Assembly: GCA_000004695.1 (NCBI GenBank) | Contig: CM000153.2 | Location: forward strand, 1,120,001 to 1,184,000 | Reading direction: 5' to 3' | Source: Dictyostelium discoideum | Lineage: Eukaryota | Length of the DNA: 64,000 bases | Part shown: positions 12,285 through 52,651 of the stretch, in pieces | Numbering within the stretch: the stretch's first letter is position 1 | How the letters are laid out: each line of letters starts with the position of its first letter | Program-made: the position numbers and the translations under genes | The notes under the pieces: model-generated | What the model was told of the DNA's origin: nothing | What the model saw: only the letters and a program-made list of their open reading frames with translations | Databases searched by the model: none

Positions 12285-13349
12285 ATGTACTCACCAGAAG
12301 ATTTAGAATATAGAGAACAACAACGTTTAAGTAAAGCATTACAAGGTAAATTAGGTGGTGCAAGCTCAAGAAAATCATGGGCACCAGTTGTAACAGGTAA
12401 ACCACAAACACATAGTGCACCAGTTAATAGTTCATTTGCATCAATTTCAATTTCAGATAAGCACCACGAATCACCATCAACAACAACATCATCACCATCA
12501 ACATCATCAGGTGTTGATAATAGTTCAATCTATCCAGGTGCAATCGTTGAGGATAAAGTTAAATCACAAGAAGCACACCGTTTGAAAAAGATGGGTCTTT
12601 CAACTGAAGAAGATGAATCAACCGCTCATATTCCAGCATATACTTCATTAAATTCATCATCCTCATCCACCATCTCAAAGAGTAATAGCAATCAAAGCCT
12701 TGCAAAGGAAACCAGTAGTAACAACCTCTTGCAATATCAATCACCAGTTAGAGTAGCCAGCTCAACATCATCTGAGAATTTAGTCGATAGTGCTTCCATT
12801 ATGAACAACGTTGATTCTCATACCTCTGAAGAGAAAATGAAGCAAGAGGCAAAGAGATTAGAAAGATGGGGTTTAAAGATTAACTCACCAACTGCTACCT
12901 CACCAAGCACTACCTCACCACCAGTCTCTAGTACCACTCCGGTTGCACCAGTGACTCCAACCGAACAATCTGTACCACAATCTCCATTCTCAACTGGTGC
13001 TGCCGTCTCTGTCAATCAAAGTCATAGCAATCTCCCAATCGCTACTACCCAACAATTCCTTGATCGTATCGTTCTCTCTGCTAAATCCGTTAAACAAATC
13101 ATTCAAAAGAAAACCTCTAATCGTGATATTGTCATCTCTATTCTCATGGATTTAGTAAAGGAATCTGCAAACTTTGGTATGACTCTCTCTTCAACTACCC
13201 CAATGTCTTTCGATATCTCTCAAAATGCTGGTAAACTCGCTGGTGCTGTCAATGAATTAGTTAAAGACACTGCTCACGAAAATAATAAAATCTTTGATGA
13301 AATTCAAGTACTCTTAGGTTTATTATATTTAGCTGTTGTTGCTAATTAG
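12285..13349 (+). CDS. Ser/Thr-rich hypothetical protein (354 aa) with codon usage typical of highly expressed genes
   Basis: Single clean ORF. Codon use is strongly biased to C-ending codons (ACC, TCC, ATC, CTC, GTC), which is unusual locally. It contains an internal duplicated motif: KSQEAHRLKKMGL and KQEAKRLERWGL. Confidence 0.6.
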   Translation: MYSPEDLEYREQQRLSKALQGKLGGASSRKSWAPVVTGKPQTHSAPVNSSFASISISDKHHESPSTTTSSPSTSSGVDNSSIYPGAIVEDKVKSQEAHRLKKMGLSTEEDESTAHIPAYTSLNSSSSSTISKSNSNQSLAKETSSNNLLQYQSPVRVASSTSSENLVDSASIMNNVDSHTSEEKMKQEAKRLERWGLKINSPTATSPSTTSPPVSSTTPVAPVTPTEQSVPQSPFSTGAAVSVNQSHSNLPIATTQQFLDRIVLSAKSVKQIIQKKTSNRDIVISILMDLVKESANFGMTLSSTTPMSFDISQNAGKLAGAVNELVKDTAHENNKIFDEIQVLLGLLYLAVVAN

Positions 13350-40699: not shown

Positions 40700-43137
40700 A
40701 TGAATAAAGATAATAGTATTAATAAAAATAATGTAAACAATGATAATAATAATAATATCAATAATAATGTAATTAAAAAATTAAAAGAAGAAGTATCATT
40801 AAAGGTTAGATCATCAGTTGTAATAGTTTCATTGGAACAAGCTATTGAAGAGATAATATTTAATTCAATAGACGCAAGAGCAACAGTAATATCTATTTCA
40901 ATAAATTTATCGAATCTATCATTCGAGGTAAAAGATAATGGATTTGGATTGTCATATGAAAATTTAAAATTTGTTGGAGATCGTAATTGTACTTCAAAGA
41001 TCAACTCACTCTCTGATCTTAAATCATTAAAAACATTTGGATATCGTGGCGAATCATTAGCAAGTTTATCAAATATATCATCATTAGATATAATTTCAAA
41101 TTCATTTGGTTCAACCATTCAAAAATCAATTTCATTTGGCAAAGTTGACCAATTTAAAATTTTAGATAATAATAATAGTAGTAGTTGTGATAATAATAAT
41201 AATAATGTTAATAATAATAATATTAATAATAATAATAATAATTCAATAGCTAATGGCACAATTGTAAAGATTAGAGATTTATTTAAAAATTATCCTGTAA
41301 GAAGACAAGGTTTATATCATCCAAATTTAAAACTAATAATTAAAAAGAGAATTGAAATCATAGCTTTATCATTCCCAAAGATTGTATTCTCAGTTTATGA
41401 TGAAACAAAGAGTTTAACTATACTAAAAACACCAAAAGATACATCATTTCTTTCTTATTTCAAACATTTCTACGGTCAAGAGATGATGAATAAATTAGAA
41501 TACGTAACCTCTGAAAATTATAATAATACCACCAACAATAATAGTAGTTCTTACTATTTATCTGGTTATCTTTCTTCACCTCATAAAAAAGGTCATCCAA
41601 ATAAATCTTTTCAATATATTTGTAAGTTTTTTTTTTTTCTTGAACAATGAAAAAAAAAAAAAAAGAATTAATATTAATAATCAATTAATATATATATAAA
41701 AAGATTTAAATAATAGAATAGTTTTAAATACAAAATTACACAGACATGTTAATCAATTATATCAAAAGTATAGATTATTTAATGCAACCAGAAAAGCAAA
41801 CGCAAATGTATCAAAAATTGCAAAAAAAGAGGTGATTGATAGTAATCCAATATTCATACTATTTTTAAGATGCTCACAATTAGAATATGAACGTTCTTAT
41901 GAACCTTCTTCAAAAACATTTTTAGAATTTAATGATTGGAAGAAACCTTTGGCTGAAATTCAAAATGTTTTAACAAAATTTTTAACAAAACATAGATCTG
42001 ATGATGGTGGAAATTCAAGAGGTAAATCAATAACTACAACAGCACTACCATCATCTCAACCAAATAATTATGATGGAAAATCAACATCAACATCAACAAC
42101 AACAACAACAACAGCAGGTGATATTTCAATATTTGAAGATGATGATTTATCAAATGTTGTTCAAGACACCCAAGAAGATGATGGTGATGGCTTTGATATG
42201 GGATATAGCAGTAGTATCGATGAAGATGAAATAATGAGTTCTCAAAATGTTCGTGGTACAAGTGTTGACCAAGATAATAATATATATGAAAATGAAGATC
42301 ACCAAGGAATGCAAATTGGTTTTGATGATTTAGATAATAACCAAATCGATAGTAGTGAGGATGAGGAACATTTAAAAAGATTAAAAGAAATAGAAGAGGA
42401 AAAACAATACATTAATGATATTTTACCAGACTCTTTCTTTATGAATGATAAAAATGCAACAACAACTACCACAACAACAACAACAACAGGTACACCAACT
42501 AAAACAACAACAACTACAAATAATTCTATATCACCATTTAAAACAATCAAGAACATCTTCACAACAAACATCACCATTCAAATCTATAGTATCACCTTTA
42601 CAAATTTCTCCACCAAAAACAACTCTTTCGCAAAGTCAAATACAGAAATCATCACCTCTTAAACTATCAAATGTAAATAATCAAATAATTGACCAATCAC
42701 CACAATCTTCTTATGATGAATCAATAGAAGTTACACAACAACCATCTACTTTACCATTGTCTCCAATTCCTTCACCTCGTATTCATAGAAATATTCCACA
42801 CAATAAAAAAGATGATACTGCTTCCACATTACAAACAACAGATCCTTACGAGAGTTCGTCAAGGGATGTAACAGATTCTCGATCATCAGCGGATTCAGAT
42901 GCAACCATTTTAGATGATAGCCCACCTCCAAGACCACCAATATTCAATTTCCCACAAACTAAAAATTCAATACCCACAGATGAAAATCACTTTCATTCAA
43001 ACATAGAAGATCAAGAGGAAGAAAGAAGTGAAGATACAACCACAATGACTCCAACATCTAAATTAAACATATCATCCCAAACACCACCTACACTTCCACC
43101 AACTACCATTCCACATATCACAAATAACTCAACCCAA

Positions 43138-43214
<77 letters not shown>

Positions 43215-45945
43215 TAATAATAATGAAAATAAAGATTTGGTTCCATTTGTTAAAGTGGAACAAAATAATGATAAGCAATTAGCAATATATAAAAATGAAT
43301 CAGACGATGATGATGAGGAAGAAGATAATAATAATGATGATAAAGAAAAAAGAAAATACCAATTAAAAGTTTCAACATTTAGAGAAGTAATTGATGTCGA
43401 CCAAATGGATGTAACAACAATTACTACAACAACTACAACTATTAAAAGTGTAAAAACAGTTACTACAAAAACTTTATCACCATTTAGCAAGGCTGCACTG
43501 GCATCAGATGCTTTAAAAAAGAATCAATATAAGGTAAAGACAGAACATCCAATATTAATTAAAGAGGAAGATTATAAAGAATTAGACTCTTTGAAAAATA
43601 CCTCCAATAATGATCAACTAAATGATTCTTCATTATTTAGTAATTCATGTCTTGATATTGTTCCATTTGAAATTAGTGATGATGAAGCAGATGAAGACGA
43701 TGACAATTTAACAGGTTTAAATGGGCAAAAATTATTATTTTTAGAAGATGGTAAACCAACAAATAATGGTAATAGTAATAATACTCTTGCAGCAGCAGCA
43801 ACAACAACAACAACAACAACTACTACTACTACTACTACTTCACCTTTTCAAAGTAGTCCACCATCTTCACCATTATCACAACCAATTAAATCTATAATCT
43901 CTCAACAAACAACACCTCCAAAAAATGTAAGAAAAAATGATATTTTTGATGAAGATGAAAAATCAAACACATTATCATCACCAATTAAAAAGTTAAAGAC
44001 TGAAAATGACATTCAAAATAATATTGCTGACAGTAATGGTAATAAAAACAAAAACACTACAACCGATAATATTGAAATAATAGTTTTGGATGATAGTGAT
44101 GAAGATTTACCTCAAAATGAACAAACAACGTCAAAATATTTTAAATCAAATGAACAATTATCATCAACAGAGTCAACAAAATCAAAACTAAATCAAATTA
44201 TTTGTAAATTAGAAAAAGAATCGTCACAATCACAACAACTAACAATACCAATAACATCAACAACCTCAACCTCGGACTTAGCACCAACCTCAACCTCGAA
44301 CTCAGCATCAACCTCAACACCAACTATCCAAACTATAAAGACAACGTCAAACCCACTTACAATTCCTGAAATATCATTCTTGAGAAAACCAACGGCTAAT
44401 GAAGAAAAGAAATCTTTATTCAGTGATTCTGAATTATCAACCACTGAAAGTGAGGGATCCTATAATGAAGGTTTTATTTTGTCATCATCATCATCATTAT
44501 TAAAGAAAAGAGTTTTATTTAACATGGAAGGCAATCAATACTATTCACCACCTCAAATTCAAAATAACTCCTCCAGTGACCAAGATGAAGAGTATAATGC
44601 TAGTCTAACTTCACCACCACCATCACCAAAACAACAATACCAAAATCACTATGAACAAAATGAAAAAGGAAATCTTTTTATTAAAGAAGAAAAAGAAAAA
44701 GAAAAAGAAAAAGAAAAAGAAAAAGAAAAAGAAAAAGAAAAAGAATTAGAAAAAGAAAAAGAATTAGAAAAAGAATTAGAAAAAGAAAAAGAATTGGAAA
44801 AAGAAAAAGAATTAAAAAAGAAAAATGATGACGAGGTACAACAAGTACAAGAAAAAGAACATGATGACCATTGTTGTCCAACTCATAACATTGGTGATCA
44901 TTTAACACTTAGTGGTATTGGTAATATTAAAGAACATCAAGACGATGAATCTCTTGGAGATGATGATGAAGAAAAAGAATTTATTCATGATTCTGATTAT
45001 AGTAAAATTGAATTGGCGAAAAAATATAATTATACTGATGATAGAATTAGTCCATTCTTTGATAAAAGTATTAAACCTGGTGTTGAAATGAAAGATATCA
45101 ATATTAATGTTAGTGGTTTTATTAAAGAAGTTCTATCTCAAAAATGTACAGAGGTAATACCAAAGGAAATGTTACAAAACTTTAAATTTATCACTCAATG
45201 GGATAACAAGTTTTTAATTTGCGAAGCAGATGGTATTGTATTGATTTTAGATCAACATGCCGTTTCAGAAAGAATCAAATTGGAAATATTAGAAAGAAAG
45301 TATTTTGGTGAGAATAAATTCGACCTTTGTCCAATGCCAGAGAGAACAAGATGGTCATTAACAGAGTATGAATTGGAACTAATGAGAATCTATACAAAAC
45401 CATTGGAACAATGGGGATTCAAATGGACATTCAATAAAACTTCAATAAACATTTCACAAGTACCAATGTTTTGTTTAGTAGGTTTGGGTGTAAACGATCT
45501 CAGAGAATTTCTTTATCAATTAGAAAGTAGTAAAGGAGCAACTTCAAATAGACCTCCTGCTGCTCATAGAATTTTAGCTTCAAAAGCATGTAGAAGTATG
45601 TATCAATTTTAAAAATTAGTAGTATTAGTTTTATTGAATTTTTCAACACATTAATATTAACTTTTTTTTTTTTTTATAAAAACTAAAAAAAATAGCTGCA
45701 ATTAAATTTGGTAATAAACTTTCAAGAGAGATTTGTATAAAACTATTAGAAGATTTAAATGAATGTAATATTCCATTTCAGTGTGCTCAGTGAGTATTTC
45801 TTTTTTTATTTTATTTTGATTTTTATTTATTATCTCATTATAAATTTACTAATTATTATTAATTTTATTTTTTAGTGGAAGACCAAGTATAATCCCTTTA
45901 ATTAATTATGGTAAACTCTTTAGTTCAGTAAAAGGTTTATATTAA
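40700..45945 (+). CDS. mlh3: MutL homolog 3 (MLH3) mismatch-repair/meiotic endonuclease subunit; exons 40700..41633, 41703..~45595 (containing two frame disruptions), 45696..45789, 45876..45945
   Basis: N-terminal GHKL ATPase (LEQAIEEIIFNSIDARAT...VKDNGFGL...TSKI...TFGYRGESLASLS). YLNNRIVLNTKLHRHVNQL and ...YPIFILFLRCSQLEYERSYEPSSKTFLEFNDWKKPL are collinear with human MLH3 [21 protein letters not shown]...TLIEFQNWDTLL but sit in different frames. The C-terminal MutL dimerisation domain is in a third frame, followed by two short exons encoding ...ACR|TAIKFGNKL...NIPFQCAHGRPSIIPL (the MutL CxHGRP motif). Confidence 0.8.
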
Positions 45946-46069: not shown

Positions 46070-46305
46070 TTAATAATTTGTTAAAGCAACTTGTTTTTGA
46101 AAAGAAGGATAAAAATTTTTCTTTGGATATTTGAGGGCAGAAGAGGTTGTTGTTGCTACTGCCCCAAAATCACCATTATCATTATTATTATTTTCATTAT
46201 CATTGTTAATATCATTATCATTATTTTCATTATTATTATTATTATTATTATTGTTATTATTATCCTCATCATTATTAATATTATTAATAATATTACTATT
46301 ATTAC

Positions 46306-46375
<70 letters not shown>

Positions 46376-46393
46376 AATATTATTAATATTATT

Positions 46394-46424
<31 letters not shown>

Positions 46425-47758
46425 TTGATATTATTATTATTATTATTTGTGTTTGTATTATTTAGAAAATAATTATTATTATTATTAATATTATTTAATT
46501 CCAATTTTTTAAAAGTTTTTATTGTTTCGTTAAATGTTGAAGAGGTTAGCTTTTGTTGATCCTTTTTTGGATCTTTATTTTCTTTAATTTGTACAGTTTT
46601 ATTGTTATTATTATTATTATAATTATAATTATTAATATCGAAGTTTTTTGGAGGTTGAACTTGTTGAGTTGGATACCAATAGTTTCCATGAGGATTAACA
46701 TTTCCTAATCCCATTACGTTTGTTGAATTATTTTCATAAAATTCTTTCATCATTTCAATATCGGTTAATTTTAATTCATACTCTTTGGCATTTGTATTGG
46801 ATCTACAATATAATTTATCAAATAATACTTTTCTGAACTATAATTTTTAAATAAAAAAAAAAAGAAAATTATTTATTATTAATATAAATATATATTTCAA
46901 ATTATTATTACTATTTATTATTTATTATTTATTATTTACATTAATTTTTGAGAAATAACTGTGTGGTGAAATTGTATAATATAAATCCTCATTTCCTTTG
47001 TCAGAAATATAAATTGGTCTACCATCAGTTGAGAATCTATCAAAACCTAAATAAAAACTAACTTGATCGACATCTACACCATAGTATTTTTTTATTAATT
47101 GATTTTTAGTTGGTCTATAATTATATTTTTCAAAAAAGTCTATTGAATTTTCAATGATTGTTTGTGATGGCTCTTGAATTGTTGTTCCAAATAAAATGGT
47201 GTGGGATATGTTATCTTTAGTTAATTCCATTATTTTATTGAAAGTTTCAAGTAGAATTGGATCATTACCACGTTCTAATAATTTTATATATTCTCCATAG
47301 AATATTACACGAATACCACATTCTTTGTATAATTTTACCAATGTTTCATTTTCAAGTAATGCCTTTAATCCACTTAAATATTTAATAAACTTTGGTAAAT
47401 ATTCTGGCCCACGATCTTCAAGTGTGCAAAACCACATTGGATAAACTATTGTCTTTATACCATGTTTAAACATCATAACCAAATCAAATAATAATTTTGA
47501 AATTGCCGTTTTACAATAATCATCATAATCAATTGTAGTTTTTTCATCTTTTCCAGTAAATTTGCATTTATTATTATGAATTCCATTAGTTTGTAATTTA
47601 GAAATTGTATTTTCAATTAAGTAAGATCTTCTTGTACCATCATATGCATAAACCATAGTATTGCAATTATTTAATCTTGAGTTTATAATTTTACTAATCT
47701 CATTATCTGTTAATTTATTAAATTCTTGAAAATTACTATAATGGGATATTGGTGTCAT
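46070..47758 (-). CDS. divergent cis-prenyltransferase (UPP-synthase)-fold-like protein with long poly-Asn tail, paralog A, 2 exons (46940..47758, 46070..46837)
   Basis: Ordered weak matches to cis-prenyltransferase motifs: MVYAYDGTRRSY (cf. IIMDGNRRWA), IVYPMWFCTLEDRGPEYLP (cf. LYAFSSENWNRP), IRVIFYGEY (cf. VRLRIIGD), FYLGFDRFSTDGRP. Exon 1 ends AAT|GTAAAT; exon 2 begins FRKVLFDKLY... Family assignment is tentative. Confidence 0.5.
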
Positions 47759-50843: not shown

Positions 50844-50849
<6 letters not shown>

Positions 50850-50989
50850 AAATTTGTCAAGGTATCTTGGTGATGATGGTGATCCCATTGAAATGTTTTG
50901 TTTAATTGTTAATGTTTGACAATATTGATATTGATTTTCTTCATTTATAAATGAATTATGTTGTTTACATCCCATTAAATTATTATTAC

Positions 50990-51046
<57 letters not shown>

Positions 51047-52176
51047 TACCATTATTATTACTACCATTATTACTATTATTACCATTATTACTATTACTAT
51101 TATTGTTATTATTATTATTTAAATTTGAATTAATATCAAGTTGTTTGAAGAGTTTAAATGCTTCATTTGTTGGTGATGATAAAACTATAGTTTGATTATC
51201 ATCATAATTTGGTTTTTCTATTGATTTTTGAGGTAATTCAACTTGAGGGCTAGGATGCCAATAATTTCCATTTGGGTTTACATTACCAATACCCATTATA
51301 TTATTTGAATTATTTTCATAAAATTTTTTCATCATTTCAATATCATTAACTTTTAATTCATATTCTTTAGCATTTGTTATAGTTCTTTGATAAATATGAT
51401 CATATAAAACTTTTCTAAACTAAAACATTATTTAAGTTAATATTATTAGGGAATTGAATATAATTTAATTAAATTAAAAAAAAAATAAAAAAAAAATAAA
51501 AAAAAAAACATACTCCATTAGTTGATAAGAAAGAATGTGGTGAAACTGTATAATATAAATCTTCTGCACCTTTATCAGATATTAAAATTGGTCTTCCATC
51601 TGTGGAAAATCTATCAAATCCTAAATAAAATGATACATCATCAATTTGGGTATTAACACCATAATAATGTTGAATTAAATCATTTTTAGTTGGTTCTGAG
51701 GAAAAAAAAAAAAAAAAAAAGGGAGAAAGGGGGGAAGGGGTTAGAAGTTGATCGAAAAACAAAATTTTCAAATAAAAAAAATTAAATATTAAAAAATGAA
51801 AAACATACCCCTTCCAAATTTTTTATAAAATGATAATGTATTATTAATTATAGTTTGAGATGGTTCTTCGATATTAGTACCTAATAATAATATTTTATTT
51901 GAATTATTTTTTGTTTTATCCATAATCTCTTCGAATTTTGATAAAAGTTCATTATCATTACCACGTTCTAATAATTTTTTATATTCACCATAAAATATAA
52001 TTCTAACCCCATTCTCTTGAAATAATTTAAAAAAATCATAATTTGGATCTAACAACTTTGATAAACCCCATAAATATTGAATAAACTTTGGCAAATATTC
52101 TGGCCCACGTTTTTCTAATGTACAAAACCACATTGGGTAAACAATATTTTTAATTCCATGCTAAAAAAAAAAAAAA

Positions 52177-52216
<40 letters not shown>

Positions 52217-52651
52217 TAATTAATTATAAATAAATAATAAAATAAAATGGAAATTAAGTAATTAAAAACTTACTTGGAACATCATAATTGATAAATATAA
52301 AAAATTATGAACTGCGGTCTTACTATATTCATTGTAATCAATTTTAATTTCTGTATTTTTATTATTATTAATATTATTATTATTACTATTATTATTATTA
52401 TTTGAAATATTATTTGAATTATTATTTAAATTATTATAATTGGCAGAATTTGAAGTATTGGCAGATGTAGCCAATGGAGAATTACAAACTTTTAAATTTT
52501 TTAAACCTTGAGAAATGAGATAAGATCTTCTAGTACCATCGTAGGCAAAAACCATTGTTGAATTTTCACCTTTTAAAGAGGTATATAATTTTGAAATTTC
52601 ATCATTTGAAAGTTTATAAAAATTTTCTTCTAAAATATTATTATTGGTCAT
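50844..52651 (-). CDS. paralog B of the 46-47 kb gene, 4 exons (52274..52651, 51809..52160, 51514..51695, 50844..51419)
   Basis: Collinear with paralog A: MVFAYDGTRRSYL, HGIKNIVYPMWFCTLEKRGPEYLPKF, VRIIFYGEY, VSFYLGFDRFSTDGRPILISDKGAEDLYYTVSPHSF, FRKVLYDHIYQ..., poly-N/S tail. It has two extra introns that paralog A lacks. Confidence 0.5.

Follow-up and report, generated by a model that had tools for sequence, protein, structure and literature searches.

Introduction

The closest described counterpart of the gene considered here is mlh3 of Dictyostelium discoideum, DDB_G0283883 (PMC9234386). This gene is a presumed ortholog of MLH3 in humans and of Mlh3 in yeast, the partner of Mlh1 in MutL-gamma. 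An ordinary functional mlh3 would be expected to encode a MutL-gamma subunit composed of an N-terminal GHKL ATPase, a long disordered linker and a C-terminal endonuclease/dimerisation domain. Nucleases of the MutL type carry two metal-binding endonuclease motifs, DQHA(X)2E(X)4E and C(P/N/A)HGRP. Two further points of reference are the mlh3 genes found in genomes closely related to the one analyzed, and the single-base coding indel errors of reference assemblies.

The window analyzed, a stretch of 64,000 nucleotides, is very AT-rich, dictyostelid-type DNA. A previous sequence-only reading recognized in it an MLH3-type MutL homolog whose large middle exon would change frame twice. Here we present evidence that supports the identification but not the number of disruptions: a single extra base interrupts the gene, and its position, its absence from related genomes and its probable origin are discussed below.

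Genomes Used for Comparison

One of the genomes, GCA_054883475.1 (chromosome record CM142510.1; stretches L001 and L004), was reached via the window open reading frames (ORFs) 12285-13349 and 29949-30830, and it represents the same strain background, assembled independently. Over the stretches compared between the window and L001/L004 (9268-16363 and 19910-40885; 28 kb), the two assemblies are distinguished by 4 substitutions and by length differences, with no coding differences among them. The length differences are all located in, or adjoin, long non-coding A/T runs, and the run in the window is always the longer one, by up to 35 nt, which looks like long-read homopolymer compression in GCA_054883475.1. 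In the same assembly, the region corresponding to window positions 33703-35501 (+), L004 13720-15518, is annotated as a single 507-aa gene combining a FYVE zinc finger with an alpha/beta-hydrolase (Abhydrolase_3/COesterase); the domains could be fused in an unusual way, or two gene models could have been merged.

Two other genomes, both labelled D. discoideum, are L002 (GCA_054859385.1, locus-tag prefix ACTFIR) and L003 (GCA_054859355.1, locus-tag prefix ACTFIW). These were reached via a neighbouring ORF, 46925-47758 (-), through its paralog P0169 and then through P0178, by cluster membership, and they appear to be among the wild-isolate genomes sequenced by a combination of Nanopore and Illumina (Holland et al., 2025; PMC12745789, PRJNA1300491). 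Their nucleotide identity with the window is 90-95%, and their synonymous divergence (dS) from it is approximately 0.08. The annotation of mlh3 in L002 (16531-21708, minus strand; 1732 aa) does not end at the stop after the conserved VKGLY but continues into AT-rich repeats, and is probably a case of a 3'-end annotation run-on.

A few observations can be made on the surroundings of mlh3 and on its linker. Two tandem paralogous multi-exon genes, without a Pfam domain, are found at 46070-47758 and 50844-52651 of the window, both on the minus strand, and these are kept across dictyostelids, with matches in D. purpureum, D. firmibasis, Polysphondylium, Tieghemostelium, Acytostelium and Heterostelium. 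A 277-aa ORF of the window is identical to a Logan protein of the same length, P0160. Within the linker, a GAAAAA/GAATTA repeat at 44660-44830, coding for (EK)n/(ELEK)n, exceeds its counterpart in L003 by 78 nt; many such polymorphisms of repeat length, all in frame, are found in this part of the protein. At 44281/44284, a +1/-1 pair of indels, 3 nt apart and net zero in effect, separates the window from L003, possibly representing an alignment artefact or a compensated one-codon micro-shift.

The mlh3 Gene and its Coding Frame

The gene extends, on the forward strand, from the ATG at 40700 to the TAA ending at 45945, and is composed of four exons and three AT-rich introns, a structure based on an exon model, on Pfam domains and on the orthologs P0001, P0002 and P0012. 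Exon 1 (40700-41621), encoding the ATPase domain, ends in phase 1 and is followed by intron 1 (41622-41703; 82 nt, GTAAGT..AG, GC 0.11). Exon 2 (41704-45595), the large exon, is, according to its frames and to the alignments of relatives, continuous coding sequence except for one extra A. It is followed by intron 2 (45596-45695; 100 nt, GTATGT..AG, GC 0.13), exon 3 (45696-45789), intron 3 (45790-45875; 86 nt, GTGAGT..AG, GC 0.10) and exon 4 (45876-45945), which completes the motif FQCAHGRPS and ends in VKGLY followed by the stop codon. The start codon is shared with the gene called in GCA_054883475.1, position 20697 of L004 corresponding to position 40700 of the window.

The domains expected of a MutL homolog are recognizable in the product. 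HATPase_c_3 (PF13589) is detected at residues 44-170, with E = 5e-12, and DNA_mis_repair (PF01119) is detected after it, in the N-terminus spliced from exons 1 and 2, marginally, at 26.3 bits versus a cut-off of 26. The C-terminal dimerisation domain, MutL_C (PF08676), is found with E = 1.4e-14, in what is referred to below as the downstream frame. Both endonuclease metal-binding motifs are present: one, DQHAVSERIKLE (45250-45285, +), fits DQHA(X)2E(X)4E, the downstream frame keeping it intact, and the other, FQCAHGRPS, is encoded across exons 3 and 4. The name MLH3 is borne by one homology match, P0003 from Momordica. The locus is supported as the known mlh3 of D. discoideum, an MLH3-type MutL homolog, the original identification agreeing with the Pfam domains, with the orthologs and with the listing of DDB_G0283883 in PMC9234386.

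The two frame disruptions previously suggested are reduced to one, as the first of them, placed at 41757-41762, arose from a single mis-transcribed base. The string quoted in its support, CAATTATAATC, has no match in the whole window, and the actual letters at 41754-41763 are CAATTATATC. The segment at 41754-41768 (+) reads CAATTATATCAAAAG and encodes Q-L-Y-Q-K in frame; translation from 41703 keeps to one frame through NRIVLNTKLHRHVNQLYQKYRLFNATRKANANVSKIAKKEVIDSNPIFILFLRCSQLEYERSYEPSSKTFLEFNDWKK and meets no stop; and the uninterrupted protein over this segment, HRHVNQLYQKYRLFNATRK, is as in the orthologs, which read HRQINQLYKDFRMFNG in P0001 of Acytostelium, HRQVNQLYQKYRLFNAE in P0002 and HRHINQLYHKFRLFNATRR in P0012. 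The DNA_mis_repair domain crosses both the intron 1 junction and this segment in a single frame, and no indels are present between 41704 and 42080 in the alignments of either L002 or L003 to the window.

Position and Nature of the Disruption

The second disruption does exist in the sequence as given. Exon 2, read in its own frame, hits a TAA at 42660-42662, and the +1 frame, the one carrying MutL_C, is open from 42445 to 45612, so a change of frame is required within 42445-42660, and any deletion of one base in this interval produces a single ORF of 1658 codons. According to a codon-usage model trained on the other long ORFs of the window, the point where the upstream frame most likely (by maximum likelihood) gives way to the downstream one falls at 42537-42546, CCATTTAAAACAATC. 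Two copies of the sequence ATCACCATTYAAA are found at 42530-42542 and 42570-42582 (+), 40 nt apart, and both read S-P-F-K, although it takes the upstream frame to read the first copy so and the downstream frame to read the second. As the copies are in different frames, the shift must fall between them, and this leaves no room for an intron. In the region of this S-P-F-K repeat the relatives read SISPFKQSRTSSQQTSPFKSIV.

The alignments point to an A4 run at 42540-42543 (+) as the site of a +1 insertion, in agreement with codon usage. At this site, both L002 and L003 have CCATTT-AAACAATC, with three A's versus the four in the window. The extra A is the only net coding indel versus L002 and L003 whose length is not a multiple of three, the other coding indels being of 3, 6, 9, 12, 15, 21, and 78 nt, and the remaining indels of lengths not divisible by three are all in introns. 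When the three-intron model is read through on the DNA of L003, a protein of 1652 aa results, the very length of the annotated product, and it reads NNSISPFKQSRTSSQQTSPFKSIVPPLQISPPK, matched by the upstream frame of the window through SISPFK and by its downstream frame from QSRTSS. As both frames of the window are matched by this one protein, the segment proposed as an intron (see below) is coding, and the window carries a one-base insertion in an A3 run. Comparison with other dictyostelid genomes, as advised in the sequence-only reading, thus uncovers AAA and one continuous frame in L002 and L003. Of what that reading had stated about the second break, the change of frame stands and its placement inside a CAA/ACA repeat does not, since the A4 run, according to the alignments and codon usage, lies downstream of the repeat.

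The alternative models of the gene predict products of different lengths: 1658 aa with one base deleted, 1625 aa with an intron spliced out, and 626 aa if the extra A is real and the upstream frame ends at the premature TAA at 42660-42662 (+), with the loss of MutL_C. The mlh3 product of GCA_054883475.1 is listed as 1658 residues, not 1625 or 626. Because this equals the length after deletion of one base, GCA_054883475.1 appears to have AAA at the site, as judged from the listed length and assuming that its annotation includes no one-nucleotide patch.

The sequence downstream of the site bears no signs of decay. No further stops or frameshifts are found over approximately 3.3 kb, and dN/dS in this part is 0.30 for the window versus L003 and 0.36 for the window versus L002, compared to 0.26 for L002 versus L003, both of which are intact. 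While a unitary pseudogene would be marked by multiple lesions and/or by dN/dS near 1, here we find a single lesion and no relaxed constraint downstream. Judging from its sequence, mlh3 in the window is not a pseudogene. Of the options first considered, an indel error or a frameshifted allele or pseudogene, the indel is supported, as the extra A has no counterpart in L002 or L003, and the pseudogene is not, as other lesions are missing and dN/dS is unchanged downstream.

Intron, Frameshifting, Mutation, or Error

An intron removed from exon 2 could also join the two frames. The one put forward earlier, of 90 nt at 42489-42578, would leave the phase unchanged; the segment with these ends, GTACAC..TATAG, in fact spans 42490-42589 (+) and is 100 nt long. 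Six stop-free GT..AG pairs restore the frame, and this segment (CAG/GTACAC...TCTATAG/T, slashes denoting the splice sites) is the only one among them of an ordinary, plausible length; its splicing would result in a protein of 1625 aa. However, when compared with 13 well-supported introns of the window, its composition is that of an exon, with a GC content of 0.29 versus 0.04-0.145, and with 22% T, 26% C and 49% A versus 51, 3, and 39%, respectively. Its donor, GTACAC, is unlike the GTAAGT, GTATGT, GTAAAT and GTGAGT of these introns, and the order-2 Markov log-likelihood ratio of coding versus intron is +28 nats for this segment, versus -9 to -96 nats for the window introns, the latter scored in-sample. 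A spliceosomal intron in this DNA would be recognized by a donor resembling GT[AG]AGT, by a GC content of no more than about 0.15, and by being left out when orthologs are spliced, whereas the segment in question has neither such a donor nor such a composition, and has near-identical counterparts in both L002 and L003, which are translated there within one ORF. The product listed by the same-background assembly also has the 1658 aa expected without splicing. We thus view splicing of this segment as highly improbable, and the intron option as refuted by composition, donor and coding status in relatives. P0012 was at first read as conserving SPFKS[IV]V over the proposed 3' splice site, and this observation was dropped, as BLASTP and MAFFT alignments of the low-complexity linker disagree. 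The chance that the full-length protein is made from the AAAA allele, via programmed +1 ribosomal frameshifting or transcriptional slippage on UUU-AAA-A, seems practically negligible. While AAA-A might let tRNA-Lys re-pair in the +1 frame, the extra A lacks the conservation expected of programmed frameshifting, L002 and L003 being in frame with AAA; the shift site is without an adjacent stop, rare codon, or stimulatory element; and polymerases do not slip efficiently on a run as short as four A's.

We infer that the extra A is erroneous and does not reflect a mutation of the strain that was sequenced. It is most likely a base-calling or assembly error of this particular assembly, and at most a variant private to the sequenced clone and of very recent origin. 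In such a scenario, the locus is an ordinary, functional mlh3, an A3 run in the linker-coding part of exon 2 would have been recorded as A4, the extra A would move the frame by +1, leading to the apparent stop at 42660, and removal of the extra A would give back the 1658-codon ORF over four exons. A real and recent frameshift in the sequenced laboratory strain is unlikely; it would imply a truncated 626-aa Mlh3 without the endonuclease/dimerisation domain, so that a line long propagated asexually would carry a null allele of a gene for meiotic crossovers. The extra A is truly in the given sequence, selection on a meiosis-specific gene may be absent in laboratory strains that are propagated vegetatively, and the lack of further decay, from which a mutation, if real, must be very recent, fits such a mutation as well as it fits an error. 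Weighing against a mutation, however, are the full-length 1658-aa product listed by the same-background assembly, the public D. discoideum Mlh3 protein entry, which is presumably also of 1658 aa, and the prior probability, which by a rough estimate is far lower for a private frameshift hitting a particular gene of 5 kb than for an indel error in a reference. What counts against an error, in turn, is that an A4 run is no classic hotspot for errors of either Sanger sequencing or polished assemblies. No differences in other short runs are found between the window and the same-background assembly over 28 kb, so that this short run would be an unusual site for an error and for a mutation alike. When metagenome contigs were scanned, neither allele (A3 or A4) had a match.

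Implications and Comparison with Known Systems

The gene is a known one and the finding is ordinary, flagging one base to be rechecked. Its main value is in quality control, the one-base length discrepancy being something for annotators to patch or for resequencing to fix. Were the extra A a true mutation, which is unlikely on the present evidence, the reference strain, an axenic laboratory one, would be a natural null for mlh3, and thus for the MutL-gamma endonuclease, with the sister laboratory strain and the wild isolates remaining intact. This would matter for the genetics of macrocysts and meiotic recombination and for work on repeat/microsatellite instability in that strain, and it would bear on crossover formation in the sexual cycle of Dictyostelium, which is Spo11-less.

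With DDB_G0283883 the gene in the window shares the order of the domains (GHKL ATPase, DNA_mis_repair transducer, MutL_C), the DQHA(X)2E(X)4E and CAHGRP motifs and the long low-complexity linker, the sole difference being the extra A at 42540-42543, which interrupts the ORF in the window. The mlh3 genes of the wild isolates (ACTFIW, L003, 1652 aa, and ACTFIR, L002) are collinear with it, at a nucleotide identity of 92-95%, and possess the same three introns, and the surroundings of the site are identical except for the A-run, with AAA instead of AAAA; beyond this, they differ by in-frame repeat lengths, of 3-78 nt, and by a dS of approximately 0.08. As to the single-base coding indel errors of reference assemblies, while the usual error-prone homopolymers are longer and the run here is of just 3-4 nt, the extra A is like these errors in being an isolated one-nucleotide difference in a mononucleotide run, in affecting an ORF otherwise intact and constrained, and in being missing from independent assemblies.
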